Of a stretch of DNA of 41,043 nucleotides, positions 4,393-20,941 are shown one piece after another. Position numbers and translations under genes: made by a program. This stretch comes from Ignavibacteria bacterium. Its GTDB lineage: Bacteria; Bacteroidota; Ignavibacteria; UBA10030; UBA6906. The DNA is taken from positions 1 through 41,043 of the forward strand of contig QKGJ01000132.1 in NCBI GenBank assembly GCA_003251275.1, in the 5' to 3' direction. The notes under the pieces were generated by a model that saw only the letters and a list, made by a program, of their open reading frames with translations, was not told the DNA's origin and searched no databases. Position 1 is the first letter of the stretch; each line of letters begins with the position of its first letter.

Positions 4393-4681
4393 TAAGTGGA
4401 AATTAGTCTAATGGAGTGTTACATTTTGGACAAGATAGAGCGAAACCCAGCAACTGCCACGAACCCGCCGGGATGATACATGCCATCAATGAGGAAAACC
4501 AAAACATCCATTTACCATGCCGTTGGTGTATGATGGAACGCACGTAGAGAAGGGCTGCCATTGAGAGCTGATCCCTCCAAAGGACTAATTCCTTTTTCAA
4601 CCCGTCGAGCTATTCATGTTTTCCTAACCGCTTAATAACATGGAATACAAGTTCTGATCAAAAACTGCGAATGGAAAGATC

Positions 4682-6673
4682 ATGCAGCAACTTCCCCTGG
4701 CACAAGAGACACTATCCCCCGACACCGCGCTTGCAATCGGTATACGCGAGTTGGACATAACGCTTATCCGTCCGACGAACTACACTGACGACGGTTATCC
4801 CATTCAAATGCGTGTCGGTGTTATTCGCAGCAATACCCTGACACAAATGGGCACGCTGGCGCGCGACATCGTGACGTATCCATTCTTCAAAGACCTGCCA
4901 ACCAATGTCCGATTGATCGACGAGGCAATTCAAAGGGTTCCGGCGAAGGAGATCATGAGGCGATCCAGAATCCCAGGTGTGAAAACGATTGTTATGCTTG
5001 TCGGCGTTCAATCGAATCAGTTTCCACGGGCACAGGATATCGCATCGTGGTTCCTACCGCAAAACATTCCTGTCCTGATCGGCGGGTTCCATGTCAGCGG
5101 CATGCTTGCCATGGTGGGCCTTACAGCGTCTCTCAGAACCGCAATGTGCAAGGGAATAACGCTTGTTGCTGGCGAAGTGGAGGGAGAACGGCTCCCGTCT
5201 ATTGTAGAAGATGTTCTCAGACAGCGGGCCGAGCCGCTCTATAATTTTCTGAATCCTACGCCCGATCTTTCAAACACTCCCACGCCCCGTCTTACCAAGG
5301 CTGATCTCAAAGGGTTCGCGTCGCCGTACAGTACCATCGATACGGGCCGGGGATGCGTCTTCACGTGTGACTTCTGCACGATTATCAACGTGCAAGGGAG
5401 AACGATGCGCTGCCGGGAGCCGGAGCAGGTTGTCGAGTTTGTCCGGCGGAACTATTATGAGGCAGGAATCGTCCACAGTTTCTTCACGGATGACAATATC
5501 GCCCGCAATCCGCGATGGCGCGAGCTTTTTGCAGGGCTCATTCATTTACGCGAAGAAGAGAACATCCCCTTTACCTTCATGATGCAAAGCGATCTCGCCG
5601 CGCGAAAGATGCCCCCCGGAGACTTTTTTGTCCTTGCTGCGCGCGCAGGATGCAACCAAGTGTTCTTCGGCGTTGAGAGTGTCAACCGTGACAACCTTCG
5701 TTCACAAGGGAAATACCAGAATCAAGTGACGGAGTATCAAGATCTTGCAGCTCATCTCCACTCACTCGGCATTGCCTGTCACGCCGGATACATCCTCGGT
5801 CTTCCGTTTGACACAACAACAAGTATTAAGAACAATGTTGCCGAGCTCCAGCGCATCGGATTTGATTCAGCGTCGTTTTATATCCTGACACCCCTTCCCG
5901 GTTCGAAAGATCATCAGCGATGGTGGCGCGAGAGGCGGTGGATGGACGCAGATTTCAATACATACGACTCAGCCCACGTCGCTGTAACGCCGGAACGCAT
6001 GACCAACAATGAACTGATGGGAGCCTATCACAAGGCCTGGGATCAATTCTACTCCATCGAGCATATGGTCGAAGTGCTGAAAGTCTGGCGGCACGATTGG
6101 TCGTGCTACTGGAACCGATTATTTTTCTTTGCCGCATACCTCTACGCCTCCCGAGTGGAACGCTTACATCCGATGAATTGCGGCTTCTGGACCAGGCGGT
6201 ATCGGGATGATCGGAGATCTGGCTTTGATCGGGAGGGATTTCTTCAGTTTTGGTGGAAACGACTGATCACAATCGCCGGAAGGCTATGGGGCATTGGGAA
6301 GTTGTTTTTCGCCCTCGAGGAGGTCTGGTTGCGAAGCCGGCCTAAATCAAAGGTAGAGGATGCTTTGCACAGCCTGATTGTGAGAACACGGAAGGACGTC
6401 GTTGATTGGCGGGACCTGAAGGCTCGCGAGCTGGCCGTACTCTACAGGAAGCTCCGCGACGAGATGTCGGGGGTGAAGGTCCCATCTGTTGCGCGACTCT
6501 GGCTTCGAAAACGTAATCCATTCGCTGGTGCCTATACGAGGTCATATGCCCAGCGAATTTGGAAACGATGGTATCTTCATGCATGGAATCCCCTGAAGTG
6601 GGTTGAGGTGTGGCTATTCGAATGGGTGAATGGCGCACGATTTCTCACGCATCTCCTCGTTGAAGGGAGATAG
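4682..6673 (+). CDS. B12-binding-domain radical SAM protein (large, with a Trp/Arg-rich C-terminal extension)
   Basis: 663 aa. The N-terminal Rossmann-like region (VMLVGVQSNQFPRAQDIA...VLIGGFHVSG) resembles a cobalamin-binding domain. The canonical CxxxCxxC cluster motif is present as GRGCVFTCDFCTI, followed by the FFGVESV and GYILGLP radical SAM core strands. The C-terminal roughly 200 aa are W/R-rich with two hydrophobic stretches. Confidence 0.85.
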   Translation: MQQLPLAQETLSPDTALAIGIRELDITLIRPTNYTDDGYPIQMRVGVIRSNTLTQMGTLARDIVTYPFFKDLPTNVRLIDEAIQRVPAKEIMRRSRIPGVKTIVMLVGVQSNQFPRAQDIASWFLPQNIPVLIGGFHVSGMLAMVGLTASLRTAMCKGITLVAGEVEGERLPSIVEDVLRQRAEPLYNFLNPTPDLSNTPTPRLTKADLKGFASPYSTIDTGRGCVFTCDFCTIINVQGRTMRCREPEQVVEFVRRNYYEAGIVHSFFTDDNIARNPRWRELFAGLIHLREEENIPFTFMMQSDLAARKMPPGDFFVLAARAGCNQVFFGVESVNRDNLRSQGKYQNQVTEYQDLAAHLHSLGIACHAGYILGLPFDTTTSIKNNVAELQRIGFDSASFYILTPLPGSKDHQRWWRERRWMDADFNTYDSAHVAVTPERMTNNELMGAYHKAWDQFYSIEHMVEVLKVWRHDWSCYWNRLFFFAAYLYASRVERLHPMNCGFWTRRYRDDRRSGFDREGFLQFWWKRLITIAGRLWGIGKLFFALEEVWLRSRPKSKVEDALHSLIVRTRKDVVDWRDLKARELAVLYRKLRDEMSGVKVPSVARLWLRKRNPFAGAYTRSYAQRIWKRWYLHAWNPLKWVEVWLFEWVNGARFLTHLLVEGR

Positions 6674-6719
6674 TAAGCAGATTGGCTCTGCCCAATTTGA
6701 ATTGAATCTACTATGATAC

Positions 6720-6750
6720 AAGAAACCCTGCTTTATTAGCAGGGTCTCTT
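6720..6750. terminator. Bidirectional hairpin terminator between the convergent radical SAM and csp genes
   Basis: AACCCTGC-TTTATTA-GCAGGGT, flanked by a T-rich tract on the minus strand (TTTCTTG) and CTCTTGTT on the plus strand. Confidence 0.6.
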
Positions 6751-6770
6751 GTTCCAACCTGTTGTTGTTT

Positions 6771-6974
6771 TTACTTCACAACAGAAACGTTCGAGGCTTG
6801 CAGTCCTTTAGGGCCTTTCTCGACGTCAAACTCAACGGCATCACCATCGTTCAAGCTCTTGTATCCGCTTGCCGAAATCGCATTGAAGTGGACGAAAACA
6901 TCTTCACCGCCTGTGCGTGAAATGAAACCAAAACCTTTTGCTGCGTTGAACCATTTGACTGTTCCTTTTTCCAT
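6771..6974 (-). CDS. Cold-shock protein (CspA family, CSD fold)
   Basis: 67 aa: [33 protein letters not shown].... The RNP-1 (KGFGFI) and RNP-2 (VFVHF) motifs are intact. An AAGGA RBS precedes the start. Confidence 0.95.
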
Positions 6975-7249
6975 GGAACTCGTCCTTTCTTTTGTATAAT
7001 AACCCGACTCTACCGTCAGGCAAGGTGTACGCCGAAAATCTACTTAGCTACTTCTGTATGATGGCGTTGCGACCTTGGAAGGACTCGTACGGTTCATCTG
7101 CAGGCATCTAAAAGCGGTGTACAGTTACTTAGTGATCCACAAGTTAGTCATACTGCGGATCAAATCCTAATCTATTCCTTTCACGAGTTGAGAGCAACTC
7201 ACCTGAAAAGGGAGCCGCTGGTGGAAGAATACGGAGCGGTGCCTCGAGA

Positions 7250-7489
7250 TCAGTTCTGCTCTAGACTCTTTCGCGAACGTATTCTTCCCCTCCTTACGCG
7301 GTTCGACAGGACGTTGCGAACCAAAATTTTCCATCTTGGAATGCTTGATCGAGAAGAGAGCGGCTTCCGGTCTTCTTTATCGAGCTTCCCATGCAACTCC
7401 ACAATTGCATAGATGTCATCTGATGACACCCATTTCTTTCTTGGGACATGTCCTTGAATAATACCCCATACCTGACGGGCCGCTATCAT
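7250..7489 (-). CDS. Small stand-alone winged-helix protein (Mrr_N-like wHTH)
   Basis: 79 aa with a perfect AAGGAG RBS. The pattern ...DDIYAIVELHGKLDKEDRKPLSSRSSIPRWKILVRNVLSNRVRRGRI resembles the N-terminal winged-helix domain of Mrr-type proteins (gene-name/ED-rich segment, then xxxW(K/R)xxVRxxLxxLxxxGxI). The family call is from memory only. Confidence 0.55.
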   Translation of the reverse strand: MIAARQVWGIIQGHVPRKKWVSSDDIYAIVELHGKLDKEDRKPLSSRSSIPRWKILVRNVLSNRVRRGRIRSRKSLEQN

Positions 7490-7762
7490 TGATTCTCCTT
7501 TCTGTATCCGCTAGAATATTTGAAAGACTTTGGGAAAACACCTTTCTCGAACAATACTACTGTATCAAGTTATACTTATTCTCAGCTAATGGCAATTTTG
7601 CCGCCTCTTTATGAGCGAGTCGTAGCAGAAGGCCAGACGAATCGAGCGGCTCCTTCTTGTGACCATTTGAAAACGTTTCGAGAATTCTTATCTTGTTATT
7701 GAAGTCGACGACCAACTTTTGGGTCTGCATAGTTTGTTCCTTCTTCGCCGCATTCCCTCTGA

Positions 7763-8413
7763 ATGAAAAGAATCCAGATCCTTCTTATTGAAGACAATCG
7801 GCTCCTGCGCGAGGGGCTTTTGGTCATGCTCAAAGAGCAACCTGATTTTAAGGTGTGTGCCTCACCCGGGAACAGTGATGCTCTCTTGCGCGCGAAGAAG
7901 TCGAAACCCAACGTGATTCTCCTTGACCTCGGTTTACGCAGTCAGAATAGCCTTCGCCTGCTGGGATTGCTCAAGAAGAGCGCTCCTGATGCAAGAGTGA
8001 TTGGAATGGATCTTGTTCCGGTGCAGGAAGAACTTGTTCAATACGTGCAAGCAGGAGTCTCAGGGTTTGTCCTGAAGGATGCGACGTTCAATGAGTTTCT
8101 AAGGACGATTCGTTCTGTCGCAAAGGGCGCAAACGTTTTGCCTCCCCTGCTCACTGACTCACTCTTCTCTCAGATTGTTCAATACGCCACGCACAAGAAA
8201 AAGGGTAATCCGTTTGCCTCGGTGAGGATGACACGCCGGGAACGAGAGGTCATTGCCTTAATAGCGGAGGGGCTGAGCAACAAGGAGATTGCCAACCGAC
8301 TTCATCTTGCCACAGACACTGTCAAAAGTCACGTTCACAACATCCTCGAAAAACTCGCTCTCCACACCCGTCTGGAAATTGCCCGATTCGCACACACCAG
8401 CGATTCTTACTAA
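7763..8413 (+). CDS. Response regulator, NarL/FixJ (LuxR-type HTH) family
   Basis: The REC domain shows ILLIEDN, the phospho-acceptor context VILLDLGL and a conserved K in FVLKD. The C-terminus has the LuxR HTH: REREVIALIAEGLSNKEIANRLHLATDTVKSHVHNILEKL. Confidence 0.9.
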   Translation: MKRIQILLIEDNRLLREGLLVMLKEQPDFKVCASPGNSDALLRAKKSKPNVILLDLGLRSQNSLRLLGLLKKSAPDARVIGMDLVPVQEELVQYVQAGVSGFVLKDATFNEFLRTIRSVAKGANVLPPLLTDSLFSQIVQYATHKKKGNPFASVRMTRREREVIALIAEGLSNKEIANRLHLATDTVKSHVHNILEKLALHTRLEIARFAHTSDSY

Positions 8414-8522
8414 ACAGCAACACCCTCTCGTCCCAAGGGACTAGTCCCTCATTCATTCCATTGAGCTATTCATTCCAGTGACAATCGTCTCTACCTTAGT
8501 GCGATCAATGTAGGGGTGTCTG

Positions 8523-8819
8523 TTGTCAACAAAAAGGAAAGAACGCCTCCCTAGGGCGCCACAGTTACCAAAGACCGGCCGCAAACTTGCGGATGCTGCC
8601 AAGCTGCGTTCAGACGAAGCGGATAAGGAGATTTTGGCCTTGGTACGCAAGGGCGTCGAGAGCTTCATGCTTAAGAATGCCACCGTTGCAGACTTCTACA
8701 AGACCATAAAAGCTGTGGGAGAACAAGAGAAGATATACGCGCACTCGTTGACGAGATCAGTCTTTTCAAGAATTGTTAAAGAAGCGATAAGAAAGCGCAA
8801 TCGAGGACGATTGAAGTAA
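8523..8819 (+). CDS. Receiver-domain C-terminal fragment (alpha4-beta5-alpha5 plus linker); possible gene remnant or small decoy
   Basis: 98-aa ORF with a TTG start. Residues DKEILALVRKGVESFMLKNATVADFYKTIKAVGEQEKIYAHSLTRSVFSRIVKEAIRKRNRG align at about 24/62 identities (by eye) with QEELVQYVQAGVSGFVLKDATFNEFLRTIRSVAKGANVLPPLLTDSLFSQIVQYATHKKKGN of the upstream regulator. It lacks the acidic pocket, the phospho-acceptor Asp and the HTH. Confidence 0.4.
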   Translation: MSTKRKERLPRAPQLPKTGRKLADAAKLRSDEADKEILALVRKGVESFMLKNATVADFYKTIKAVGEQEKIYAHSLTRSVFSRIVKEAIRKRNRGRLK

Positions 8820-8849
8820 TTCTCAAAGGAACATTCCCTGGAGATCTCT

Positions 8850-10415
8850 ATGCGAAAACTACGAATCGGGATCATTGATCTCGTTAGCAAAGGTCCGACA
8901 CGTGCATTATGGGCACGGGTCATGAACGCCAATCTTGCGAGCATCATGCCTCAGGCTGTCGCCGTATGGTGCAAGGAGGAGGGACACGATGTTACTTTTC
9001 TCTCCTATACAGGCTTTGAGAATCTTGCGGAGGAATTGCCCGAGAACGTCGACCTTGTGTTTATTGGCGCCTTCACGGAGGCGGCCCAGGTTGCCTATGC
9101 CCTCAGCAACCAGTTCCAGTCACGCGGCGCGATTACCGTGCTCGGCGGTCCTCATGCCCGTTGCTATCCTCAAGATGCCCAAAAGTACTTCGACTACGTT
9201 GTCGGGCTCACGGACAGATCAGTAATCAGGGATATCCTGCAAGACTGTTCGAAGCACAGACCTCTTGGTATTCGACTCGCAGCAGAAAAACAGCCCGATG
9301 ATATCCCGGGCGTTCGTGAACGATGGGAGTGTATCGAATCTACACTCCGGAAGGCACCTTTTATTAAGATGGTGCCAATGTTAGGCAGCACGGGGTGTCC
9401 TTATACATGCAGCTTCTGCATCGATTCGACAGTCCCGTACCAACCGCTCGATTTTTCCGTGATGAAGGATGACCTCCGGTTCCTTCTCACGAAGTTCAAG
9501 AAACCATTGGTAGGCTGGCACGATCCGAACTTTGGGGTTCGCTTCGATGATTTCATGGGCGTGATGGAAGAGTCTGTCCGTCCCGGCAGTATCGATTTCG
9601 CCGCGGAAAGCAGTCTTTCACTCCTCTCGGAAGCGCATGTGAAGAGGCTGAGGCATAATGGCTTCAAAGCTCTTTTGCCGGGCGTCGAGTCGTGGTACGA
9701 TCTCGGTGGCAAGTCGAGCACCGGTTCCAAGCAAGGCATGGAGAAGGTGCGACGGGTATCCGATCACGTCAATATGATACTGAGACACATCCCGTACATT
9801 CAGACCAACTTCGTGTTGGGACTGGACTCGGACAGCGGTTCCGAACCATTTGAGCTCACGAAACGATTTGTCGATTTGACGCCAGGTGCATTTCCCGGCT
9901 ATTCGCTTCTCTCCTCCTTCGGTGAAGCTGCGCCACTCAATCTGCAATATCAGAGGGAGAATCGGGTTATCGGATTTCCATTCCACTTTTTGAACAATAA
10001 TCTCGCAATGAACCTTAAGCCGACGAACTATTCGTGGCCTTCATTCTACGAACACGTAATCGATCTGACGAAATATACTTTTTCCGCGCGTGCGATCTTT
10101 CGTCGGATCGGGGCGACCCATGCATTTATCCCCCGTTGGTTGAATGTTGTCCGGGCGGTGTCATCGGAGGGATACGGAAGAATCAATCATTACTCAAACG
10201 TGCACCGACAACTTCTTCACGATCAGCAGTTCCGGACATATTTTGAACAGGAGACGACAACGCTTCCCAGCTTCTATTTAAATCAGGTGCAAAAAGACCT
10301 TGGGCCGATGTGGCGGTGGCTTCCGCAGGGGGCACTCTATCATGATCCCAACGCGTATCTGAAGTCCGAAATCGAGATGGCCGAGGAAGAACAGGAAATA
10401 CGCCTGGTCGTATAA
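8850..10415 (+). CDS. B12-binding-domain radical SAM protein (second type, unrelated in detail to 4682..6673)
   Basis: 521 aa. The N-terminal Rossmann-like part is IGIIDLV...VDLVFIGAFTEAAQVAYALS...VLGGPHA. The CxxxCxxC motif is GSTGCPYTCSFCIDS, followed by the LLPGVESW core strand. GGAG lies 8 nt before the ATG. Confidence 0.85.
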   Translation: MRKLRIGIIDLVSKGPTRALWARVMNANLASIMPQAVAVWCKEEGHDVTFLSYTGFENLAEELPENVDLVFIGAFTEAAQVAYALSNQFQSRGAITVLGGPHARCYPQDAQKYFDYVVGLTDRSVIRDILQDCSKHRPLGIRLAAEKQPDDIPGVRERWECIESTLRKAPFIKMVPMLGSTGCPYTCSFCIDSTVPYQPLDFSVMKDDLRFLLTKFKKPLVGWHDPNFGVRFDDFMGVMEESVRPGSIDFAAESSLSLLSEAHVKRLRHNGFKALLPGVESWYDLGGKSSTGSKQGMEKVRRVSDHVNMILRHIPYIQTNFVLGLDSDSGSEPFELTKRFVDLTPGAFPGYSLLSSFGEAAPLNLQYQRENRVIGFPFHFLNNNLAMNLKPTNYSWPSFYEHVIDLTKYTFSARAIFRRIGATHAFIPRWLNVVRAVSSEGYGRINHYSNVHRQLLHDQQFRTYFEQETTTLPSFYLNQVQKDLGPMWRWLPQGALYHDPNAYLKSEIEMAEEEQEIRLVV

Positions 10416-10458
10416 ATACGTTCAACCACTATCGAGGAAACATCAGAGGGAATTTTTC

Positions 10459-10659
10459 ATGATCAAAGTAACAACGACAAAGGCAACTCATCGCGGAGTA
10501 GAAATCAAGGTGATGTCAGAAAATGTCGGTAACGGAACAACCTATTCCTGTTCCAATAATACTGGAAAACCAAAGTTGACGGTGAAGTGGTTTGCTACAC
10601 AGGGTGAAGCCATAGCAAACGAGCGCCGTGAAATTGATGCTGTGCTGCCTGGAAAGTAG
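10459..10659 (+). CDS. Small hypothetical protein immediately downstream of the radical SAM gene
   Basis: 66-aa ORF with an AGAGGGA RBS 8 nt upstream and a 43-nt gap after the stop of the radical SAM gene. I recognise no family. Confidence 0.4.
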   Translation: MIKVTTTKATHRGVEIKVMSENVGNGTTYSCSNNTGKPKLTVKWFATQGEAIANERREIDAVLPGK

Positions 10660-10731
10660 CAGGTGAGGTAGTCATTGGGAAAGAATCGGTCGAGATGGGG
10701 CGCCATTTTATGAAGTGTGCCCATTGTATTG

Positions 10732-10804
10732 TGCCCCCAACCGGATTCGAACCGGTGTTACAAGCTTGAAAAGCTCGTGTCCTAGGCCTCTAGACGATGG
10801 GGGC
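10732..10804 (-). tRNA. tRNA-Glu (anticodon UUC)
   Basis: The reverse complement reads GCCCCCA-TC-GTCTAGAGGCCTAGGACA-CGAGC-TTTTCAA-GCTTG-TAACA-CCGGTTCGAATCCGG-TGGGGGC-A. The cloverleaf is near-identical in layout to E. coli tRNA-Glu, with anticodon loop U-U-UUC-A-A. CCA is not encoded. Confidence 0.9.
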
Positions 10805-10840
10805 GAACAAGGAAGAATTTCGAATGAGAAATGATGTCCG

Positions 10841-11206
10841 TTATCGGTTCACTTCTTTTGCTGCTTGAGCCGTTTTCCTTGACGTAACGAAAATCAAAAC
10901 CAGCTCGTCTCGCTCGCCATGGAGTCGGTTGAACTAATCGTCGCGGACCAGCTTCATTTCATGAAGAGTTCCAGCCAGTACTGGGTTTCGTGAGACTCCT
11001 CGACAACAATGGCAATTTTCGTTACAAGATTGGCCTTCGATCTTGCCCTACAAGCCGAACGATAATTGGCTCCAACGGAAGTTGCAGATCTAATGACTTG
11101 CCGGGAAATTATTTCTGCCGCCTGAGTCGAGGAAGATTGGCCAAGGCATCCATAACATCAAGTACAAATTTCTTGTTCTGTCCCTGAGTTCATCACCCTT
11201 CGCCAT
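10841..11206 (-). pseudogene. Decayed four-helix-bundle protein gene (23S rRNA intervening-sequence protein family, PF05635-like)
   Basis: The minus strand reads MAKGDELRDRTR (frame a), then KFVLDVMDALANLPRLRRQK* (frame b), then EIISRQVIRSATSVGANYRSACRARSKANLVTKIAIVVEESHETQYWLELFMK* (frame c). It then returns to frame a with KLVRDD*FNRLHGERDELVLIFVTSRKTAQAAKEVNR*. That is three -1 shifts (near 11171, 11115 and 10957) plus an in-frame TAG at 10934..10936. The SxTSxGANYR..xRARSKA...K..IV.EE..ET.YWLEL signature is characteristic of the family. No intact ORF of 60 aa or more exists on this strand. Confidence 0.75.
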
Positions 11207-11266
11207 ATCCTTCTCTCCGAGTCCATAGCTCAATCACCATTCAGAATTCCTCATTCCGCATTGCTG

Positions 11267-11340
11267 TGACCCCGCCGCGACTCGAACGCGGAACCTACAG
11301 CTTAGAAGGCTGTTGCTCTATCCAATTGAGCTACGGGGCC
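11267..11340 (-). tRNA. tRNA-Arg (anticodon UCU)
   Basis: The reverse complement reads GGCCCCG-TA-GCTCAATTGGATAGAGC-A-ACAGC-CTTCTAA-GCTGT-AGGTT-CCGCGTTCGAGTCGCGG-CGGGGTC-A. The anticodon loop is C-U-UCU-A-A. Confidence 0.9.
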
Positions 11341-11508
11341 GGCAAGTTAAGCAGGAATTTCATCACGATGGTTCAACTTTTCCCCGATTTCAAGAATCGG
11401 ACGAGAATATACGGGTTTTTGAATCCTGTTGCAATCCAGGAACCAAACTGCCCCTCGGTTCTCGAGAGGCAGCTGAAAAAACTCAAGACAACTATTTCGT
11501 GTCGGTTG

Positions 11509-11583
11509 TCGGGGCGACAGGATTCGAACCTGCGACTTCTTGCTCCCAAAGCAAGCGCTCTAGCCGGGCTGAGCTACGCCCCG
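11509..11583 (-). tRNA. tRNA-Pro (anticodon UGG)
   Basis: The reverse complement reads CGGGGCG-TA-GCTCAGCCCGGCTAGAGC-G-CTTGC-TTTGGGA-GCAAG-AAGTC-GCAGGTTCGAATCCTGT-CGCCCCG-A. The anticodon loop is U-U-UGG-G-A. Confidence 0.9.
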
Positions 11584-11638
11584 ATTGGCAAACGGCGGAA
11601 AGAAGTTACGAAAACCCGACATCGCGTGCAACACAAGA

Positions 11639-13390
11639 CTATCGCAGATAAACCATTTTCCTCGTTTCCACGAAATCACCGGCGCGGAGACGATAGAAGT
11701 ATGTTCCGCTTCCAAGACCCTCTGCGTTGACAAACGCTTCGTGCGTCCCTTCGACTCGATCTTCATTCACCAGAACATGTACCGCTCGCCCCAGCATATC
11801 ATAGAGAACAAGAGAGACGTGTTCCCGCGACGGAATGAAAAACGAAATCTTCGTCGAGTTGTTGAACGGGTTCGGATAGTTCTGACCAAGTTGTACTTTC
11901 GCAGGAAACGAAAGACCGCTTTCGACAGAGACCGGTGGGTTATTTGTGAAAAGAAAAATCAAATCGTCTACTTCATCAATACCAGTAAAATCAAGATCAC
12001 CGTCGTTGTCGCGATCATGAAGTGTTGCGCAGGATCCGGTGCTGGAGGAATTGAGCGTCCGTGGGTTGATGAATATTCCACTTCCGTCATTTTCATAGAC
12101 AGTCCATGAGGCTGAGGCGTAATTACTGGTGACAAGATCAAGATCTCCATCCCCATCGATGTCACCGAGATCGATGGCGATTGGAATTGATCCTGTAGGA
12201 TAAGTGACGGCTGTGTCGAGATGTCCCATTCCATCGCCGAACAGAACGGAAGCGTTATTAAAAGAATTGTTTGCTGATACGACGTCAACATTTCCGTCAC
12301 CATTCACGTCGCCAACCGCAATCATCCATGGTCTTCCTTTGGCTGGACGTTTGTGGGAGAAAACGAAGCTACCTTGGCCGTCGCCAAGCATCAGCGAGAT
12401 CTCATTGCTTCCGAATCCACCTACAAAAAGATCAAGAATCCCATCTCCATTTGCGTCCGCAGTTGCACATGCAGTTTCCTGGCTCACATTCGCTTCCAAG
12501 GTGTCTGTCGCTGTGAAGGAACCAGTTCCGTCATTGGAGAAGAGAATCACATTGCTCCCCGATCTATTCGCAGTGACAATATCCATATCCCCGTCCCCGT
12601 CCAGATCATCTATCGCAACACCCCGCACTTGCTGGGCAGCAGCATAGTTTGTGGGAGTTGTGAGATTTCCCATTCCATCCCCCATGAATATGGTTAGCTT
12701 GTTATTGCCCCCATTGCCAACTGCATAGTCAAGATGGCCATCACCATTGAAGTCAGCTCCCTCATTCGGACTTGGTGACGATCCTCCAGGCATAGGATAA
12801 ACTGCAAATGCACCATATGAACCAGCTCCATTATTAAGAAATAAACGAACATCCACTGAAATCTCGTTCGGTATGGCCAGATCCGAAAAGCCGTCCTCAT
12901 TAAAGTCGCCACCGTATGCTCCGTACGACTGGATACGACCTTCACCGGAACGACGGGTACTGATTGGAGGGGCCGACACAAAGTTAAATGATCCCGGTGC
13001 TGTTTGAATCCAAAACGTCCATGAGTACCCGTGAAGCATGGATTCTCCAGTCGTGTTCTGTAGGTTCTTGGAAAGAGTTACTGTTACGAGTTCCCCAGCT
13101 GAGAATGACCGCTGTGGCGAAAATCGCAACGTCATATTTCCATTCTCAAAAATCGTCAGCCCCTGCATAATTCCCGACCAATGACCGAAAACCATGAGAT
13201 CGGCACTCGAAAAAGAAGAAGGGTTTATCGGCTGATCAAATGTTGCCGTAATATCGGATGTCCCTTGTACGATAAGAGAATGAGAGGTTGGACTTACTGA
13301 ATTTACTACTGGTGCGGTTGCATGTAGTGAGGTGACACACGAGATGAGCAGCGCAACGCACAGAATGAAAGCGGGTTCATTTGATTTCAT
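11639..13390 (-). CDS. Secreted FG-GAP/VCBS (integrin-alpha-like) seven-repeat beta-propeller protein with an N-terminal Ig-like domain and T9SS CTD
   Basis: I place the start at ATG 13390 (GGAGGGG RBS), giving the signal peptide MKSNEPAFILCVALLISCVTSLHA. Seven Ca-binding-type repeats are present: FNEDGFSDL, FNGDGHLDYAVGN, DLDGDGDMDIVTAN, DANGDGILDLFVG, DVNGDGNVDVVSAN, DIDGDGDLDLVTSN, DRDNDGDLDF. The C-terminus is LGQNYPNPFNNSTKISFFIP...YFYRL. Confidence 0.85.
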   Translation of the reverse strand: MKSNEPAFILCVALLISCVTSLHATAPVVNSVSPTSHSLIVQGTSDITATFDQPINPSSFSSADLMVFGHWSGIMQGLTIFENGNMTLRFSPQRSFSAGELVTVTLSKNLQNTTGESMLHGYSWTFWIQTAPGSFNFVSAPPISTRRSGEGRIQSYGAYGGDFNEDGFSDLAIPNEISVDVRLFLNNGAGSYGAFAVYPMPGGSSPSPNEGADFNGDGHLDYAVGNGGNNKLTIFMGDGMGNLTTPTNYAAAQQVRGVAIDDLDGDGDMDIVTANRSGSNVILFSNDGTGSFTATDTLEANVSQETACATADANGDGILDLFVGGFGSNEISLMLGDGQGSFVFSHKRPAKGRPWMIAVGDVNGDGNVDVVSANNSFNNASVLFGDGMGHLDTAVTYPTGSIPIAIDLGDIDGDGDLDLVTSNYASASWTVYENDGSGIFINPRTLNSSSTGSCATLHDRDNDGDLDFTGIDEVDDLIFLFTNNPPVSVESGLSFPAKVQLGQNYPNPFNNSTKISFFIPSREHVSLVLYDMLGRAVHVLVNEDRVEGTHEAFVNAEGLGSGTYFYRLRAGDFVETRKMVYLR

Positions 13391-13614
13391 GATTGTGTCC
13401 CCTCCCTTACATCGGTCAATGTGTGATATTCGCCACCGGAAAGCCACTTCCATGATGTTGACACTTATAAGACTTTTGATTACCCTTTACATAACTGCAC
13501 GTGTATCTCACGTGAACCAATCCAAAGAGCATTGTATTGTCCTGGTGTCCTCACCCTGGCACGCTCACCATGAATATAGGCATTCCTCAATAGAGTTGAA
13601 AGGAAAGGTCGGTT

Positions 13615-16131
13615 ATGGCCAGAAGAGCCGAACCTTTGGTGCGCAGTGTAGAGCAATTGAAAGAGGGAGCAAAGTACCTCAAGATTGCAGACCAGCTGGT
13701 GCGCGAAGGAAAGTACGATGTGGCGCTCAAAGAGATTGCCAAGGCCCGGGCCGCGAATCCTTCCAACCTTTATGCCCTTGCGTATGAAGACCGTGTTCGG
13801 TCACTTCTTCAGGCCAATGACGGAGAAAAATCCAAAGAGCAACGCGGGCGGCTCAAACCGGCAATTGAACAACTTTCCAGTCTTGCGGTCGTGCAAGCAC
13901 AGCGTTCGCTAGACAACGAGCTAAAGAAGGAGAAAGCGCTCCAGAGTCTCCAAAAAGAAAATGATGAACGTCTTTCGCTTGACGAAGTGCGGAAAGCAGC
14001 AATTCAAGAGAAAATCCAGTCGTTTATTACAAGGGTCATTGAATATCAAGCGAAGTCGGACTTTCCACGAGCACTTGCTGAAATTGATCGGGCATATCTC
14101 TTGGACCCGATGAACGAGCAGGTAAGAATACTCGAGGGAGAAATCCGCAATCAGCTCCAGGAGCAGAACAAAAACAAAAAGCTGGAACTGCAGCGGTTGA
14201 GAGAAGAAGAAGAGCATCAACGAAGCGAACTGATTTCATCTGAACAAGAGAAGATTCAACAAGAAATTGACGAGAAGAAGCGACGCGCAGAAGATGCCCG
14301 ACGTGTTGCGCAGGAGCAAAAGGTTCAACAATACGTTCGACAGTCCAAACATCTTCTTGCTGCCGGACAACTCGATGACGCGCTGAGTGAACTTGCATTC
14401 GTCGTTGTTATTGACCCGCTCAACGAAGACGTTCTAAGTCTTGAGCGGGTTATCCGCGAGCGGATGGAGAAGGAGCGAAAGGAACAGCTCGCCCGTGAGA
14501 AAAGGCAAGAAGAAGAGCGCGTCAAGCGGATTGAAGCCGTGCAGGTGACAGTTGCAAAACATATAGAGAGAGCAAACAACCATGCCCGGCAGGGGGATTT
14601 CGATGAGGCTCTTCGCGTTATCACAAGAGCGTATGTCATTGATCCGCTCAGCAAGGATCTAATGGAATGTGAAACGTCCATCCTCCTGGAACAGGATCGT
14701 CGAGCGCATGCGCTTACTGAAGAACAGGTTCGCAAAAAGGAAGAACAGGCGAAGCGGCGCGAAGAGGAACTTCGCAGTCTGGAGAAAGCCGAGCGAGATC
14801 GTTTGCTGGCGCGTGAACACCTGGAGGAGGAGAAGAGGAAGAAGCAGGAAAAAAACAAAATCGGTGAATATCTCACGCGCGCTCGGAAGTATGCTCGTGA
14901 CAATCAATTTGAAAGCGCTTTAGGAGAGCTTGCGCTAGCTTTTGTTCTTGATCCGTTTGATGAAGAAGTGAAAGATGCAGAACAAGAGATTATCACCATG
15001 AGGGAGGGCATTTCCCTCCAATCCGAAGTGCACCCGAGTTCTGCCGAGGAAGCAATAACTCACTTCGAAAATGCCCAGCGGATGCGTAAGGCATCACGAT
15101 TTGATGATGCACTGGAGGAATTGGCGAAAGCATTCGTGCTGGATCCGTTGAACCCTGCTATCCAGAAGTTAGACGATGAAATCCATGAGGAATACAGGAC
15201 GTTTCAAGCTGCTGAGAAACAGATTGAGGTTGAGCAGGAACCCTCGGCCCGAGAGAATTTGTGGCGGGCGATGGAGCTTCTTGACCGCAGTGAGCATTGT
15301 GACGCCCTCCGCGAAGTTGAGAATGGTCTCTCTCTGGAGCCTCAGAACGAAGATCTTCTAACTCTCCGGTCGGAGATCGAGAAGATCATTGTAGGAACAT
15401 CGACCATTGAAGAGTGTATAGCCCGCGCAGGTGAGTTTCTTGCGGAGGAAAAATACCACAAGGCACTAAAAGAAGTTGAAGCAGGCCTGAACGAATTCCC
15501 TAATTCGATCGAACTTCTTGGCTTGCGCTCAGAAATTGAAAATGCCCGCGACAAGGAAGTAGAGAGGATTATTATTGAATCGCGGCGGCTTTTGCCCGAA
15601 GGAAATCAAGAGGATGTCCGCATCCTCCTTGAGAAAGGATTTCTGCTTTCTCCAGACAATTCGCTACTCCAGGAGATTTCGCGCGAATTAGATGAAGAAG
15701 GTCATTCTGGTGATGAAACAATCCTTCGCCATATTGAGATGGCGAAGGAAAATCTTCGTGCGGGCACATATGAAGAAGCCCTTGCCCAAATTGCGCTTGG
15801 GCTCACGGTGGATCCCGAAAACAATGAACTGCGCGGCCTTGAGGCGGAGACGTGGAGGAGGAGCGGAAACGATCGAGCGGGCGAAGATCCTGACACACGG
15901 AGTTCTGCTGAAGAGGTAAAGGAGCATCTGCAACGGGCCATGGACTTTCACGATTCCGATGACTGCACCAGTGCCCTCGATGAGGTAGCGAAAGCATATG
16001 CCCTTGATCCACTGAATCCTGAAATCCGCAGCGTTGAGAATCGCATCCGCCAGACGGAACTTCGCCAGCAGAAGGAAGAGACACCGCTCAAGCTCATCTA
16101 TCCCGACCAGAAACGGGTCGGCCATTCGTAG
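13615..16131 (+). CDS. Large soluble protein with 11 TPR-like helix-turn-helix units separated by E/K/R-rich coiled-coil linkers
   Basis: 838 aa with no signal peptide or TM segment and a GAAAGG RBS. The recurring roughly 45-aa unit is ...(G/S)x(Y/F)xxAL(x)E(I/V)xxAxx(L/I)DP(L/F)Nxx(V/I)xxLExxI. Its cores lie at residues 48, 164, 267, 343, 446, 510, 575, 628, 679, 733 and 798. Confidence 0.8.
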   Translation: MARRAEPLVRSVEQLKEGAKYLKIADQLVREGKYDVALKEIAKARAANPSNLYALAYEDRVRSLLQANDGEKSKEQRGRLKPAIEQLSSLAVVQAQRSLDNELKKEKALQSLQKENDERLSLDEVRKAAIQEKIQSFITRVIEYQAKSDFPRALAEIDRAYLLDPMNEQVRILEGEIRNQLQEQNKNKKLELQRLREEEEHQRSELISSEQEKIQQEIDEKKRRAEDARRVAQEQKVQQYVRQSKHLLAAGQLDDALSELAFVVVIDPLNEDVLSLERVIRERMEKERKEQLAREKRQEEERVKRIEAVQVTVAKHIERANNHARQGDFDEALRVITRAYVIDPLSKDLMECETSILLEQDRRAHALTEEQVRKKEEQAKRREEELRSLEKAERDRLLAREHLEEEKRKKQEKNKIGEYLTRARKYARDNQFESALGELALAFVLDPFDEEVKDAEQEIITMREGISLQSEVHPSSAEEAITHFENAQRMRKASRFDDALEELAKAFVLDPLNPAIQKLDDEIHEEYRTFQAAEKQIEVEQEPSARENLWRAMELLDRSEHCDALREVENGLSLEPQNEDLLTLRSEIEKIIVGTSTIEECIARAGEFLAEEKYHKALKEVEAGLNEFPNSIELLGLRSEIENARDKEVERIIIESRRLLPEGNQEDVRILLEKGFLLSPDNSLLQEISRELDEEGHSGDETILRHIEMAKENLRAGTYEEALAQIALGLTVDPENNELRGLEAETWRRSGNDRAGEDPDTRSSAEEVKEHLQRAMDFHDSDDCTSALDEVAKAYALDPLNPEIRSVENRIRQTELRQQKEETPLKLIYPDQKRVGHS

Positions 16132-16167
16132 CAATTCGTTCCGCGCACCCGGCAAGAAACTCAGCCT

Positions 16168-17487
16168 ATGACTGTCCCCCCTGACAATCACGAACATGGA
16201 CTTCTTTCTTCGCACCTGAATCACGTTCAGGGTTTCGTGCGTGAGGGACAATTTCAGGAAGCGCTGGAGTCGATCCAGCACGCGCGGGCAACGGAGCCTC
16301 ATAATCTGTATGTAATTGCTTTACAGAAAAAAGTCGAACGGTTGCGCGAACTTTCCAGTGACCAGACTCTTTCGGAAAGCGCCAGACAGGAGATCCAGAG
16401 AGCCCTCGAAGCAATCGCTGCGCGGGCGGTTTCAGTCCCTCCGATTGATCAGCCTTCAAAAAGAGAGATTACCGAGCGGGAGGAAGCGTTGGAAAACGTC
16501 CGGCAGTCCTATTTGCAGCGTGCTGATGAATACCTTACCGAAGGAGATCTGCAGCGTGCATTGAGAGAGGTTCGGCGACTTTACATTCTTCATCCGAACG
16601 ATCCGGAGGCCGAAAGATATGAGAAGAGGATCAATCATATTCTCGGCCTGCAGGATGCAGCCAGCGATAGGACGACCCTTGAGAGTCCAATGGGATTACG
16701 TGCTGAATCGGAGTCTCCTTTTTCACCGGCGCCCGAAGAATTAGCGTCGAGAAAAGAATCAGCCGTGGCAATGCCTGCCTTCTTGGACGAGAACTTCATG
16801 GAAGAAGGCCGTCAGCCTGCTATACGGTGGTCAACCGTGTTGTTTATCTCGGCAATTCTTCTTATCGCCATAATTACTCTCTCGATTATCTTTGGAGGAA
16901 AAGAAGAACACCAAGGCCAGTCATCTTTATCCGGGAATGCCCGTCGATCCATCCCCGGTGTTACTCGTGGGGAGAATAAAACGAATGAGTCCGGATCGGT
17001 TGGGGCGATTCTGGAGAATATTGAAATCAATCCGCCCAAAGCGAATCTTCTGACTGATTCCCCTGCGGGAGGAGAAAGCAACGTAGAGCAGAATTTACCC
17101 GGTGCTGATCACCTCCTGGCGGGAGACGGGGAAACGAACGTGATAAGAATTCCTCCCGTTCTTCCGAAAGCCCCCAATATCGGCGCTGATCAATTGACAC
17201 CATCGTATGTGGAAACGCAAGAACTGCCGCGGGTGAAACAGTTTATCCTGCCTCAGTATCCAGAGCTGGCTTTTCGGACGGGCGCCGAAGGAACGGTCAA
17301 AGTACGAGTGCAGGTGGGGCCCACGGGAAAACCGCTGCAAGCAAGAATCCTTGAGAGCACAAACCCGGTCTTCAACGAGGCGGCAATCAGTGCTATGTTG
17401 AGCGCGGAGTTTGAACCCGGGAAAATGCCTTCGGGCCCAGTGACTTCCTGGGTAACGGTTCCGTTGACCTTCCGACGTCCTGAATAG
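16168..17487 (+). CDS. TonB-family protein with an unusually long (about 220 aa) cytoplasmic N-terminus carrying two copies of the upstream repeat unit
   Basis: 439 aa with a single TM helix (WSTVLFISAILLIAIITLSIIFGG, residues about 221-244) and a Pro/Gly/Asn-rich spacer. The C-terminal TonB_C signature is LPQYPELAFRTGAEGTVKVRVQVGPTGKPLQARILESTNPVFNEAAISAM...FEPG. The N-terminal units are REGQFQEALESIQHARATEPHNLYVIALQKKV and EGDLQRALREVRRLYILHPNDPEAERYEKRI. Confidence 0.8.
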   Translation: MTVPPDNHEHGLLSSHLNHVQGFVREGQFQEALESIQHARATEPHNLYVIALQKKVERLRELSSDQTLSESARQEIQRALEAIAARAVSVPPIDQPSKREITEREEALENVRQSYLQRADEYLTEGDLQRALREVRRLYILHPNDPEAERYEKRINHILGLQDAASDRTTLESPMGLRAESESPFSPAPEELASRKESAVAMPAFLDENFMEEGRQPAIRWSTVLFISAILLIAIITLSIIFGGKEEHQGQSSLSGNARRSIPGVTRGENKTNESGSVGAILENIEINPPKANLLTDSPAGGESNVEQNLPGADHLLAGDGETNVIRIPPVLPKAPNIGADQLTPSYVETQELPRVKQFILPQYPELAFRTGAEGTVKVRVQVGPTGKPLQARILESTNPVFNEAAISAMLSAEFEPGKMPSGPVTSWVTVPLTFRRPE

Positions 17488-17547: not shown

Positions 17548-18129
17548 ATGAAACCCTTGAAGAGAGTTACACTGTATGCTGTGCTATTGTCATCACTGTT
17601 ATTTGGGTGTTCAACCCAAAAGAAGCAAGAAGAGGGTCAGCGGCCGGCTTTATCGTCACAAACTCAGAACGTTGCGGGAGTCCAATGGAGTATACCAGCG
17701 ACCTGGACAAAAGGTCCGGAAAAGCAAATGCGCGTCGGGACTTATTTTGTGAAGGGAAGCGATGAAAATGTTGAGCAGGGAGAATGTGCCGTTTTCTACT
17801 TCGGGCAGGGGCAAGGTGGAAATGTCGAGGCGAACATCGATCGATGGCTGGCGCAGTTCGAGAACCGTACAAACGAAGAACGCAACAAGGAGGAGTTCAA
17901 CGGAATCAGCGTAACGATAGTCAGCGTTCAGGGAAACTATCTCTCCCCGGGAGGCCCGATGATGCAATCCCAGGGGACGAAGGAAAAATACAGTCTTCAT
18001 GGGGCCATTGTCGAAGCTCCGGGAGGAATGGTATTTTTCAAATTTACCGGACCGAGTTCCGTTGTTAACAGTGCAAGCGATGATTTTCGGGCAATGTTAC
18101 AGTCCCTTTCGAAAAACGTCGCGGGGTAG
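17548..18129 (+). CDS. Lipoprotein of unknown function
   Basis: 193 aa. The signal peptide plus lipobox is MKPLKRVTLYAVLLSSLLFGC. An AAAGGTG RBS precedes the start. Confidence 0.7.
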   Translation: MKPLKRVTLYAVLLSSLLFGCSTQKKQEEGQRPALSSQTQNVAGVQWSIPATWTKGPEKQMRVGTYFVKGSDENVEQGECAVFYFGQGQGGNVEANIDRWLAQFENRTNEERNKEEFNGISVTIVSVQGNYLSPGGPMMQSQGTKEKYSLHGAIVEAPGGMVFFKFTGPSSVVNSASDDFRAMLQSLSKNVAG

Positions 18130-18167: not shown

Positions 18168-19709
18168 ATGCCTGTTCTTGATTTGGATAGTTTTCAGAAG
18201 AAAATAATTGTCCGCCCAATTCAGATGGAGGATTATCAAAAAATTGTCGACTTACAGCTAAAGTGTTTCCCGGGAATGAAACCGTGGACGCGCGAACAAA
18301 TTGAAAGTCAGCTCAGCTTGTTTCAAGCGGGCCAGATCTGCGTGGAGTACGATGGGGAGATCGTTGCATCCAGCAGCAGCCTGATTCTTGACTTTGCGCT
18401 GTATGGCGAGATGCATACCTGGCAGGATATCTCCAACGCAGGGTACATCACCAACCATAATCCAGAAGGGAACACCCTTTATGGAATTGAAATTATGGTG
18501 GATCCCGCATATCGGGGGATGAAGCTCGCGCGCCGCCTGTACGATGCGCGCAAGCGGATCGCTGTTGAAATGAACCTGATGAGGATTGTTATCGGCGGCC
18601 GTATACCCAATTATGGGAAATACTCCGATAAAATGACCGCGAGAGAATATGTCGACAAGGTGACACAGAAAGTGCTGGTCGATCCGGTGTTAACCACGCA
18701 ACTTTCAAATGGCTTCGTTCTCAAACGGTTGATGGGTTCCTATATGGATTCCGATAAGGAGTCAAAGGGTTATGCGACTCTTCTGGAGTGGACGAATCTG
18801 GATTACCAACCGGACCCCGACCGGGTGTTTGTGGCAGCGCAGCCGGTCAAAATCTGCGTCGTTCAGTATGAGATGAGACAGATCAGTTCGTTTGAGGAGT
18901 TCGTCCGCCAATGCGAATTTTTTATTGACGTGGCCTCTGATTATCGCTGCGACTTCATCCTCTTCCCGGAGATTTACACGACTCAGATGCTCAGCTTTAT
19001 TGAAGCATCCCGTCCGGCTCTTGCGGTACGCAAGCTTGCTGAGTTTACGCCCCAGTACGTTGAGACATTCACGCGACTGGCGGTAAAGTACAATATTAAC
19101 ATTATTGGCGGTTCACATTTTTGTATCGAAAACGATCGTCTTTATAACGTCGCGTACTTATTCCAGCGCAATGGCACCATCAACAAGCAGTATAAGCTTC
19201 ATATTACGCCAAACGAGCGGCGATGGTGGGGAGTCGAACCGGGAAATTCTGTCGAAGTCTTCGAAACGGACAAGGGAAAGATTTCGATTCAGATTTGCTA
19301 CGACATCGAGTTCCCCGAAGTGAGCCGCATCGCGGTGGAAAAGGGAGCGCAGATCATCTTCGTTCCGTTCTGCACAGACGAACGCTACGGCTATCTGCGC
19401 GTACGCTATAGTGCGCAAGCCCGGTGTATTGAAAATCATGTCTATGTTGCCATTGCCGGTACGGTCGGCAATCTCCCCTCCATCCATAATATGGACATTC
19501 AGTATGCGCAATCAGGTATTTTTACCCCTGCCGATCTGCAGTTTGCCCGTGATGCCGTCGAGGCGGAAGCAACGCCGAATATCGAGACAGTGATTGTCGA
19601 TGAAGTTGATCTTGAACTGCTCAAGCGGCATCGACAAAGCGGCAGTGTGTTGAACTGGCGTGATAGGAGGACCGATCTCTACGAAATCCATTACAAAGGA
19701 AACACTTGA
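18168..19709 (+). CDS. Bifunctional GNAT N-acetyltransferase / carbon-nitrogen hydrolase (nitrilase superfamily) protein
   Basis: The N-terminus has the GNAT acetyl-CoA motif (VDPAYRGMKLARRLY). The C-terminal CN-hydrolase carries the Glu-Lys-Cys triad contexts ILFPE, YKLHITPNE and ISIQICYDIEFPE. Confidence 0.85.
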   Translation: MPVLDLDSFQKKIIVRPIQMEDYQKIVDLQLKCFPGMKPWTREQIESQLSLFQAGQICVEYDGEIVASSSSLILDFALYGEMHTWQDISNAGYITNHNPEGNTLYGIEIMVDPAYRGMKLARRLYDARKRIAVEMNLMRIVIGGRIPNYGKYSDKMTAREYVDKVTQKVLVDPVLTTQLSNGFVLKRLMGSYMDSDKESKGYATLLEWTNLDYQPDPDRVFVAAQPVKICVVQYEMRQISSFEEFVRQCEFFIDVASDYRCDFILFPEIYTTQMLSFIEASRPALAVRKLAEFTPQYVETFTRLAVKYNINIIGGSHFCIENDRLYNVAYLFQRNGTINKQYKLHITPNERRWWGVEPGNSVEVFETDKGKISIQICYDIEFPEVSRIAVEKGAQIIFVPFCTDERYGYLRVRYSAQARCIENHVYVAIAGTVGNLPSIHNMDIQYAQSGIFTPADLQFARDAVEAEATPNIETVIVDEVDLELLKRHRQSGSVLNWRDRRTDLYEIHYKGNT

Positions 19710-20941
19710 CGGATCTTCTTCGATCACCGGCTGGTCGTCGATTCCTCTTTGCGGTTCTCTATCTGAGTGAAGGTGCGCCCATCGGATTTATCTGGTGGGC
19801 GTTGCCGGCTCGCCTCCGTGTCGCCGGTGTTCCTATCGAACAAATTGCCTCGTTGAGCGCGCTCCTGATCCTTCCCTGGACACTGAAGTTCCTCTGGGCT
19901 CCCCTCATTGATTCACTCCGCTCTTCCCGATGGACATTGCGCTCGTGGATCTTTTCCGCCCAAACGATTATGGGTTTCTCGCTGGTGCCTCTTCTGTTCG
20001 TGGATCTCCATACGGACTTTCCCCTGATTGTCGGACTCTTGTTCGTGCATGCCGTTGCTGCGGCAACGCAGGATGTTTCTGTCGATGCTCTTGCCATCGC
20101 TTCCGTTTCCGCGGAAGAAAAAGGTTCGGTGAATGGTTGGATGCAGGCAGGGATGCTGCTCGGTCGGTCTGCTCTGGGGGGAGGCGCATTGCTCCTCGCC
20201 TCTACGTTCGGTGACACGGCGGTGATCTCACTCCTGATCGGCGTCATTTGGTTCTCGATGGCGTTTCTCTTTTTTTCAGGAGTGGAAGCAATGCATACAG
20301 CCCACGAGGATCAGTGGAAGCGGATGAAAGATGTTGCAACCCGTCTCGGAACCCTCCTTCGTCGTCGGTCGACATGGCTTGCCCTTGTATTTGCACTCAT
20401 CGGAGGCGCCGGATTTGAGGCGGTGGGAGCGGTAGTGACACCATTTCTGATCGACATGGGAATCTCCACAGAGGAGACTGGCTGGTTCATGGCATTCCCT
20501 GTGGTTGTTGCCATGATGATCGGTGCCGTTGCAGGTGGGTATTTGTCAGACGTGATGGGAAGAATTCGCACGGTCAGTTTCTTCCTGCTCTTCATGGCTG
20601 TTCTGATTCTCGCCGTCAGCATCGTCATTGAAACCGGCAGCGCCGGAAATTCTGCAAGTCTGTTTGTATTGCTCGGTGTCCTCTATCTTGGGATCGGTCT
20701 TTTTACAGCTTCATCCTATGCGCTGTTTATGGATATGACGGACGTTCGTCTTGGCGCGACACAATTCAGCGCCTACATGGGTGTGACGAATGCATGCGAA
20801 ATGTGGTCGGCATTTGTGGTGGGACAGTTGGTAGGAGGGTTTGGTTATGCGATTGCGTTTGCCGTTATGGCCGCTGTTTCTCTTGCGGCGCTCCCGGTTC
20901 TCAAACGCCTCTCCCGTTCTCCGAAACACTCATTTTCCTAA
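19706..20941 (+). CDS. MFS transporter, AmpG/PAT family
   Basis: 411 aa with about 12 TM helices. LPWTLKFLWAPLIDS and AATQDVSVDAL match the AmpG signatures (KFLWSPLMD and ASQDIVFDAW in E. coli AmpG, from memory). The TTG start overlaps the upstream stop (TTGA), so the exact start is uncertain. Confidence 0.8.
   Translation: MTDLLRSPAGRRFLFAVLYLSEGAPIGFIWWALPARLRVAGVPIEQIASLSALLILPWTLKFLWAPLIDSLRSSRWTLRSWIFSAQTIMGFSLVPLLFVDLHTDFPLIVGLLFVHAVAAATQDVSVDALAIASVSAEEKGSVNGWMQAGMLLGRSALGGGALLLASTFGDTAVISLLIGVIWFSMAFLFFSGVEAMHTAHEDQWKRMKDVATRLGTLLRRRSTWLALVFALIGGAGFEAVGAVVTPFLIDMGISTEETGWFMAFPVVVAMMIGAVAGGYLSDVMGRIRTVSFFLLFMAVLILAVSIVIETGSAGNSASLFVLLGVLYLGIGLFTASSYALFMDMTDVRLGATQFSAYMGVTNACEMWSAFVVGQLVGGFGYAIAFAVMAAVSLAALPVLKRLSRSPKHSFS

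Follow-up and report, generated by a model that had tools for sequence, protein, structure and literature searches.

A TonB-domain protein of Ignavibacteria whose cytoplasmic module is paralogous to the repeat protein encoded upstream

The 41,043 nucleotides (nt) of contig QKGJ01000132.1 from an Ignavibacteria bacterium (assembly GCA_003251275.1), referred to as the window throughout, contain two adjacent genes on the + strand whose products share a repeat unit. Gene A (13615–16131, taken from the open reading frame (ORF) list) encodes a predicted cytoplasmic repeat protein of 838 amino acids (aa). After 36 nt it is followed by gene B (16168–17487), whose product of 439 aa has the layout of a bitopic inner-membrane protein, with a cytoplasmic two-unit module, a transmembrane helix, a disordered linker and a TonB C-terminal domain.

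The C-terminal part of B (residues 362–436, 17251–17475, including a PQYP motif) matches the Pfam family TonB_C (PF03544) with an E-value of 7.8e-16 and 58.7 bits at a cut-off of 24.6, as well as the NCBIfam model TIGR01352 (1.2e-15). In the AlphaFold2 model of the complete protein, which has a mean predicted local distance difference test (pLDDT) score of 59, confident helices at residues 7–166 are followed by a helix at 221–242, disorder at 247–351 and a confident alpha/beta domain at 356–435. Comparison with Foldseek revealed that this last domain is similar to E. coli TonB (1u07, 2gsk) with target TM-scores of 0.78–0.83, a root-mean-square deviation (rmsd) of 2.2–2.9 Å and 31–33% identity, and the fold matches include TonB in complexes with BtuB and FhuA, whereas TolA C-terminal domains were found far below (E 0.03–0.1, target TM-score 0.44–0.48). 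E. coli TonB is also the best PDB match in a phmmer search (2.3e-5), with the PQYP motif aligned. The C-terminal domain of B is a genuine TonB-type domain. It is preceded by a low-complexity periplasmic linker of about 110 aa (16894–17250) that is modelled without secondary structure at a pLDDT of 30–35. Counted as 107 aa with 9% Pro in B and as 107–171 aa with 9–20% Pro in the orthologues, this linker is rich in Pro, Gln, Ser and Thr. Residues 243–355, where a 'motor box' would follow the transmembrane helix, show no strand in the model, at very low confidence. In every tested respect, that is C-terminal domain, PQYP motif and disordered linker, the periplasmic half of B is TonB-like.

A Kyte–Doolittle scan revealed one hydrophobic segment in B, the core of the transmembrane helix at residues 224–242 (VLFISAILLIAIITLSIIF; 16837–16893; KD19 hydropathy 3.04), so that about 222 residues precede the membrane; the helix as such is placed at about residues 224–246. 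Exactly one such segment was found in all of the family representatives of 400–570 aa (93/93), starting at residue 190–307 with a median of 235. Within 15 residues of the helix the sum of Lys and Arg averages 3.81 on the N-terminal and 1.66 on the C-terminal side of these 93 members; the N flank is the richer one in 72 of them and the C flank in 10. The same pattern is observed for B of the window together with 25 locus orthologues. Since B has no signal peptide, carries a periplasmic-type C-terminal domain and follows this charge bias, a single pass with the N-terminus inside and the C-terminus outside is the only reasonable reading of its predicted topology.

Gene A consists of ten clear units and one degenerate unit of about 43 aa each, which resemble tetratricopeptide repeats (TPR) and are separated by helical linkers rich in Glu, Lys and Arg. 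The clear units start at residues 21, 137, 240, 316, 419, 483, 548, 601, 706 and 771 and score 55–68 bits each with the unit hidden Markov model (HMM), and the protein matches TPR_14 of Pfam with 1.2e-15 and 56.9 bits. No transmembrane helix was detected in A by a Kyte–Doolittle scan (maximum KD19 hydropathy 1.43) and no signal peptide is read from its sequence, so the protein should be cytoplasmic.

The unit HMM, built only from the ten units of A, recognizes two units in B, namely residues 16–56 (unit 1; 16213–16335) with 24.0 bits and an i-E of 2.7e-9, and residues 115–155 (unit 2; 16510–16632) with 32.8 bits and an i-E of 4.8e-12. As a control, the N-terminus of B was shuffled 1000 times, and the best of these sequences reached 9 bits. 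With TPR_14 itself the match of B is marginal (residues 114–148, 5.6e-5, 23.9 bits against a cut-off of 23.5). Counted from the sequences, the first units of both proteins are identical in 15 of 32 positions (47%), and the N-L-Y-x-I-A-L signature in unit 1 of B has its only counterpart in unit 1 of A. Beyond the units, residues 14–163 of B are colinear with residues 19–185 of A in a blastp alignment (30% identity, E 2.7e-13 with composition correction). In the exhaustive phmmer search with residues 1–222 of B, matches of the A type are strongest through their N-terminal 20–190 residues. The colinear alignment and the scores of the HMM made from A indicate that the N-terminus of B is paralogous to units 1 and 2 of A together with the intervening linker, which goes beyond the mere sharing of a motif. 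Judged from these comparisons, the cytoplasmic module of B would have arisen when the 5′ region of gene A was duplicated.

Modelled separately, residues 1–171 of B fold into seven helices with a mean pLDDT of 83.7; the helices of unit 1 (6–25, 29–42, 47–64) reach 86–91 and unit 2 reaches 90–94. Glu134 and Arg137 in unit 2 are invariant across the 93 family members. The 34-residue helix-turn-helix motif is recognized by TPR profiles in both A and B, and the profile matches of the N-terminal part of B in the PDB are consensus TPR proteins only. Superposition on solved TPR domains with Foldseek yields local likeness only (rmsd about 15 Å, query TM-score about 0.3). The units do not occur as three or more contiguous repeats; they are isolated, with charged helices of 50–100 residues between them. 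Every unit is a TPR-like hairpin on its own, extended by a third helix, and a TPR superhelix is not formed. Most of the initial annotation, made from the letters of this DNA alone, is in accordance with these results: it had taken B for a TonB-family protein with about 220 cytoplasmic residues and two copies of a unit of the upstream protein, with first units about 50% identical and the genes 36 nt apart. Its number of units in A had to be corrected, to the ten clear plus one degenerate given above.

A and B lie in the same reading frame, with one TAG and 12 codons between them (16129–16167). Read-through of the stop codon of A into B was considered and rejected, as the shared frame is kept neither in locus L001 nor in L009 of the sample described below. 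A scan of the gap for promoters and terminators gave nothing above chance. No RNA runs were found that could document co-transcription of A and B, the matches being DNA metagenomes only (hydrothermal vent and sediment samples). Positions 15600–17000 have near-identical counterparts (94% of sampled words) in a hydrothermal-vent metagenome and one further metagenome, and weaker matches were obtained from marine, freshwater, soil or sediment metagenomes.

To follow the pair across species, one genome per GTDB species was sampled, resulting in 50 loci, all of the Ignavibacteria type. A B-type gene directly follows A in 46 of them. The fusion form, in which module, transmembrane helix and TonB_C are found together after A, accounts for about 25 of the 50 loci: in 21 an intact A is followed by a full B fusion at a distance of −26 to +188 nt, and in four (L012, L016, L043, L048) the same arrangement is present with one ORF broken. 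In L032 a B-type N-terminus follows A and the contig ends inside B. The remaining 4 of the 50 loci are uninformative due to Ns or contig ends. In 20 loci we found a split form, where A is followed by a protein of 155–163 aa that corresponds to the N-terminal module of B alone, with neither transmembrane helix nor TonB_C. In most of these 20 loci the stop codon of A overlaps the start of the split gene (−1 or −4 nt). The existence of this form indicates that no TonB part is needed for the module to work with A.

The split, or type 2, loci (L017–L021, L026–L031, L033–L034, L037–L040, L042, L046–L047) encode, further upstream, another paralogue of A with about 680 aa. Sequence reading, confirmed in part by Pfam, further assigns to them a response regulator, a HAMP histidine kinase and a double-receiver protein as well as a 929-aa membrane protein with a C-terminal region similar to PP2C/SpoIIE. 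In L017 the type 2 locus spans 102–12595.

More than 187 homologues of A were obtained, and all named sources are metagenome-assembled genomes of Ignavibacteria, Ignavibacteriota or 'Bacteroidota bacterium'. Searching with residues 1–222 of B, exhaustive phmmer gave 226 clusters at 50% identity (E ≤ 1e-3), and among the 93 matches of 400–570 aa TonB_C is present in 86. A word-indexed homologue search with the same residues returned no matches, which is read as a limit of the index since phmmer found these clusters. In the sources consulted, the annotation of family members goes no further than 'TonB family protein' or 'hypothetical', and the few with a name carry the former. Two metagenome contigs found via B preserve the order A–B–C, where C is the gene downstream of B, with B at 35% and 76% identity and with differing flanking genes. 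The family is well populated, restricted to the Ignavibacteria lineage and uncharacterized, and the gene order points to A and B as a conserved two-gene module of that lineage.

Homology alone does not prove contact, and TPR-like units serve widely in protein binding, with a broad choice of ligands. The shared units might then be nothing but the trace of a partial tandem duplication, with A and B acting independently. We regard this as very improbable, because A and B stay neighbours in 46 of 50 species, even where identity falls to about 35% and the flanking genes are different, because stop and start overlap in the split variant, and because the pairing of module and A outlasts the loss or absence of the TonB part.

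With modest confidence we favour the reading that B is a trans-envelope tether which links the cytoplasmic multi-unit scaffold A to a partner in the outer membrane or periplasm, probably without being driven by ExbBD. The C-terminal domain would grip a β-strand, similar to a TonB box, of the outer-membrane or periplasmic partner, and the cytoplasmic module would join the 10–11-unit scaffold protein A. With both contacts in place, an assembly in the cytoplasm would be fastened to the envelope at a fixed point, or a signal would pass between the two sides. We infer the contact between A and B from the near-universal adjacency, the translational coupling in the split form and the retention of the module with A in the absence of the TonB part. 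It may be homotypic, that is unit on unit, as the initial annotation had proposed; the adjacency, the stop/start overlap of the split variant and the shared module lend this indirect support.

An alternative docking element for B could be the extreme C-terminus of A, where a motif LKLIYP...G is found (residues 825–838; 16087–16131). Leu825, Lys826, Leu827, Tyr829 and Gly836 are invariant in 10 divergent orthologues, and in the one type 2 locus inspected (L017) the A paralogue of about 680 aa ends differently. Because TPR-type grooves often bind C-terminal peptides, this terminus is a candidate short docking peptide, e.g. for a TPR-like groove.

TonB and TolA bind their motors, ExbBD and TolQR, via a Ser-x3-His-x6-Leu-x3-Ser (SHLS) motif in the transmembrane helix, which is confirmed by cryo-electron microscopy (PMC12204202). 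The pattern S...[HN]......L...S, which allows Asn as well and matched E. coli TonB as a control, was matched by none of the 93 family members. The helix of B in the window contains neither His nor Asn; across the family its sequence is poorly conserved and in most members purely hydrophobic. The initial annotation had stated that no ExbB/ExbD or TonB-dependent receptor genes lie in the window, and Pfam scans of all ORFs of at least 120 aa agree, as neither MotA_ExbB and ExbD nor Plug and TonB_dep_Rec were detected in the 41 kb; the tolQRB and pal genes were not found in the window either. ExbB/ExbD are also absent from the 25 most frequent neighbouring families of 16 diverse loci, although single occurrences could be hidden in this comparison. 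The missing exbBD genes mean little by themselves, because tonB genes often lie apart from exbBD (PMC12204202). The absence of SHLS, on the other hand, points to B as probably a tether or adaptor rather than a force transducer driven by ExbBD. We regard B as probably different from a classical TonB driven by ExbBD, and its lack of motor coupling is what we infer from this helix.

The initial annotation had seen in B an energy-transduction protein with a cytoplasmic input, an interpretation that is supported in part. Its TonB C-terminal domain is genuine, whereas the transducer role is opposed by the absence of SHLS in all 93 members. Following that idea, B would be a working TonB that is energized by ExbB/ExbD encoded elsewhere and opens TonB-dependent transporters, with the module and A serving only for regulation or localization. 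We consider this possible but clearly less probable than a tether. It draws on the TonB_C match and the fold match to TonB in the BtuB and FhuA complexes with PQYP aligned, as well as on the Pro/Gln/Ser/Thr-rich linker of 107–171 aa. Genomic context adds to this. In one sub-lineage (L029, L032 and L044), genes for an extracytoplasmic function (ECF) sigma factor, a FecR-type anti-sigma factor and a TonB-dependent receptor are located directly upstream of A–B on the same strand, which fits a real TonB role. In L029 the cluster occupies 1430–5731 and its receptor of 877 aa comprises CarboxypepD_reg, Plug and barrel; the layout is the same in L032 and L044. Furthermore, the transmembrane helices of B in L029 and L044 contain Asn, and the His20Asn variant of E. 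coli TonB is active. Against a working TonB stand the absence of SHLS from all 93 members, with a helix that is poorly conserved and mostly purely hydrophobic, the absence of ExbB/ExbD as a conserved neighbour, and the occurrence of the module without transmembrane helix or TonB part in 20 species, which argues for a core function independent of TonB activity.

The same observations have to be weighed against the tether, together with some others. With 31–33% identity and PQYP kept, the C-terminal domain of B resembles E. coli TonB no less than that of many true TonBs does, and the linker matches the TonB spacer in length and composition. As tonB is often unlinked from exbBD, the TonB-like C-terminal half may indicate a motor-coupled role, and the ECF sigma/FecR/receptor clusters next to A–B point in the same direction. 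Moreover, the inside position of the N-terminus is predicted from sequence rules, and the physical contact between A and B is proposed from gene arrangement.

A further alternative to the tether builds on a comparison with the polar landmark proteins FimV/HubP. They have a periplasmic LysM anchor, one transmembrane helix and, in the cytoplasm, isolated TPR-like motifs with charged low-complexity stretches that recruit partners. By analogy, B could be a landmark or anchor that attaches through its C-terminal domain to peptidoglycan or to an envelope protein in a fixed position, and the units together with A would be a polar or septal scaffold, possibly tied to envelope remodelling. The analogous architecture of B, a periplasmic anchor and one transmembrane helix followed in the cytoplasm by isolated TPR-like motifs with charged linkers, speaks for this, and peptidoglycan binding has been reported for the TonB C-terminal domain. 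The anchor is TonB_C in B and LysM in FimV/HubP, no LysM or other known peptidoglycan-binding domain was found in B with Pfam and NCBIfam, and TIGR03504 (FimV_Cterm) gave no match at E ≤ 0.1. A gene trio coding for a TPR lipoprotein, a DUF4292 protein and an M23 peptidase also belongs to this discussion. In 13 loci it immediately precedes A in the same orientation (in L004 at 1560–5406); it is located 6 kb downstream in L001 and 14 kb downstream of A–B in the window (31544–35282). This vicinity may hint at a link to envelope or division, or it is only inherited gene order within one clade. Overall, a landmark of the FimV/HubP type appears unlikely to us, if less so than independent action of A and B.

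Directly after B in the window, gene C (17548–18129, + strand) encodes a predicted lipoprotein of 193 aa with the lipobox LFGC and without a Pfam or NCBIfam match. As a third core member it was rejected, since homologues directly after B were found only in L001–L003. It is followed by a gene for a 513-aa fusion of GNAT acetyltransferase and carbon-nitrogen hydrolase domains (18168–19709), which a gene for an MFS transporter (19706–20941) overlaps by 4 nt. Both genes also come after A–B–C in L002 and L003 and not in L001. Upstream of A, two predicted type IX secretion cargo proteins are encoded at 2566–4338 and 11639–13453, each with a C-terminal Por_Secre_tail sorting domain; one contains an SBBP beta-propeller and the other FG-GAP repeats with Big_5. 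Such proteins are in line with an origin in Bacteroidota/Ignavibacteria. Between them, three tRNA genes (Glu-TTC, Arg-TCT and Pro-TGG) are found on the − strand at 10731–11583, and the long ORFs over this stretch are spurious.

TonB-domain proteins are usually annotated as energizers of nutrient uptake. The family of B comprises at least 86 clusters at 50% identity, and counts of TonB_C in Bacteroidota or Ignavibacteria genomes should be considered a poor basis for conclusions on the capacity for TonB-dependent transport. The occurrence of fused and split forms in different species amounts to a natural experiment on the module with and without an envelope tether. Going further than the tether as such, A and B might form the centre of a trans-envelope system of Ignavibacteria that is as yet undescribed. 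Scaffold A would then recruit several TonB-domain tethers by packing of like units and would couple cytoplasmic organization or force to outer-membrane proteins without an SHLS interface, while the split form of 160 aa would serve as a soluble cap or competitor. This extension is tentative and we hold it with distinctly less confidence than the tether itself.

Several known proteins allow a comparison. With canonical E. coli TonB, B shares the TonB_C fold, PQYP, a flexible Pro-containing spacer, a single transmembrane helix and the periplasmic C-terminus. The two differ in the cytoplasmic part, which comprises only a handful of residues in TonB and 222 in B, and in SHLS, which is present in TonB and absent in B. 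TolA is more distant: its C-terminal domain ranks far below TonB among the fold matches of B, and a tol-pal context is not found in the window. According to literature, TonB proteins in general have no cytoplasmic domain (PMC8262864), which makes the architecture of B unusual, though not unique. SjdR of Anabaena, formerly TonB1, is a TonB-like protein with a cytosolic N-terminal extension of about 65 aa and a role in cell wall and septum unrelated to siderophore uptake (PMC8262864). In contrast to B, which has a full TonB C-terminal domain and a structured module of 222 aa, SjdR is without a real one (PMC8262864).

The closest parallels are found in the Agl-Glt gliding machinery of Myxococcus xanthus. 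GltJ has a cytosolic N-terminus of 377 residues, in which a GYF domain binds AglZ and a linker binds MglA-GTP (PMC11135422). GltG combines cytoplasmic FHA domains with a TonB C-terminal domain, and its FHA domains are predicted to dock on GltI, a giant cytoplasmic TPR protein with six predicted GltG-binding sites that is a predicted scaffold of several machines (PMC11761067). The transmembrane helices of GltG and GltJ are located at 330–348 and 385–405 (PMC11135422, PMC11761067). A cytoplasmic input on a TonB-type protein, which the initial annotation had believed to be undescribed, is therefore already known from GltJ and GltG. The concept as such exists with GltG/GltJ–GltI, and what is new here is an Ignavibacteria family with units paralogous to scaffold A. 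With this family, the TonB C-terminal domain is seen outside the myxobacteria, too, as the periplasmic terminus of a protein that has a large, structured domain in the cytoplasm and probably a partner of its own there.

Like B, GltG and GltJ are single-pass inner-membrane proteins with a periplasmic TonB-type C-terminal domain, long disordered linkers and large cytoplasmic N-terminal regions; in B the corresponding features are the TonB C-terminal domain, the single transmembrane helix and an N-terminal region that exceeds 200 aa in the cytoplasm. The cytoplasmic units are different, being TPR-like and paralogous to scaffold A in B and of the FHA or ZnR-GYF type in GltG and GltJ. Pfam gave no matches for FHA, GYF or zinc-ribbon in B, and neither glt/agl genes nor motor genes similar to AglRQS/TolQR were detected in the window or in the conserved neighbourhoods. 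A–B and the Glt system belong to different phyla and have no sequence relation outside TonB_C. The A–B pair does not belong to the Glt system, but appears, on paper, to resemble GltG/GltJ–GltI more than it does a classical TonB.

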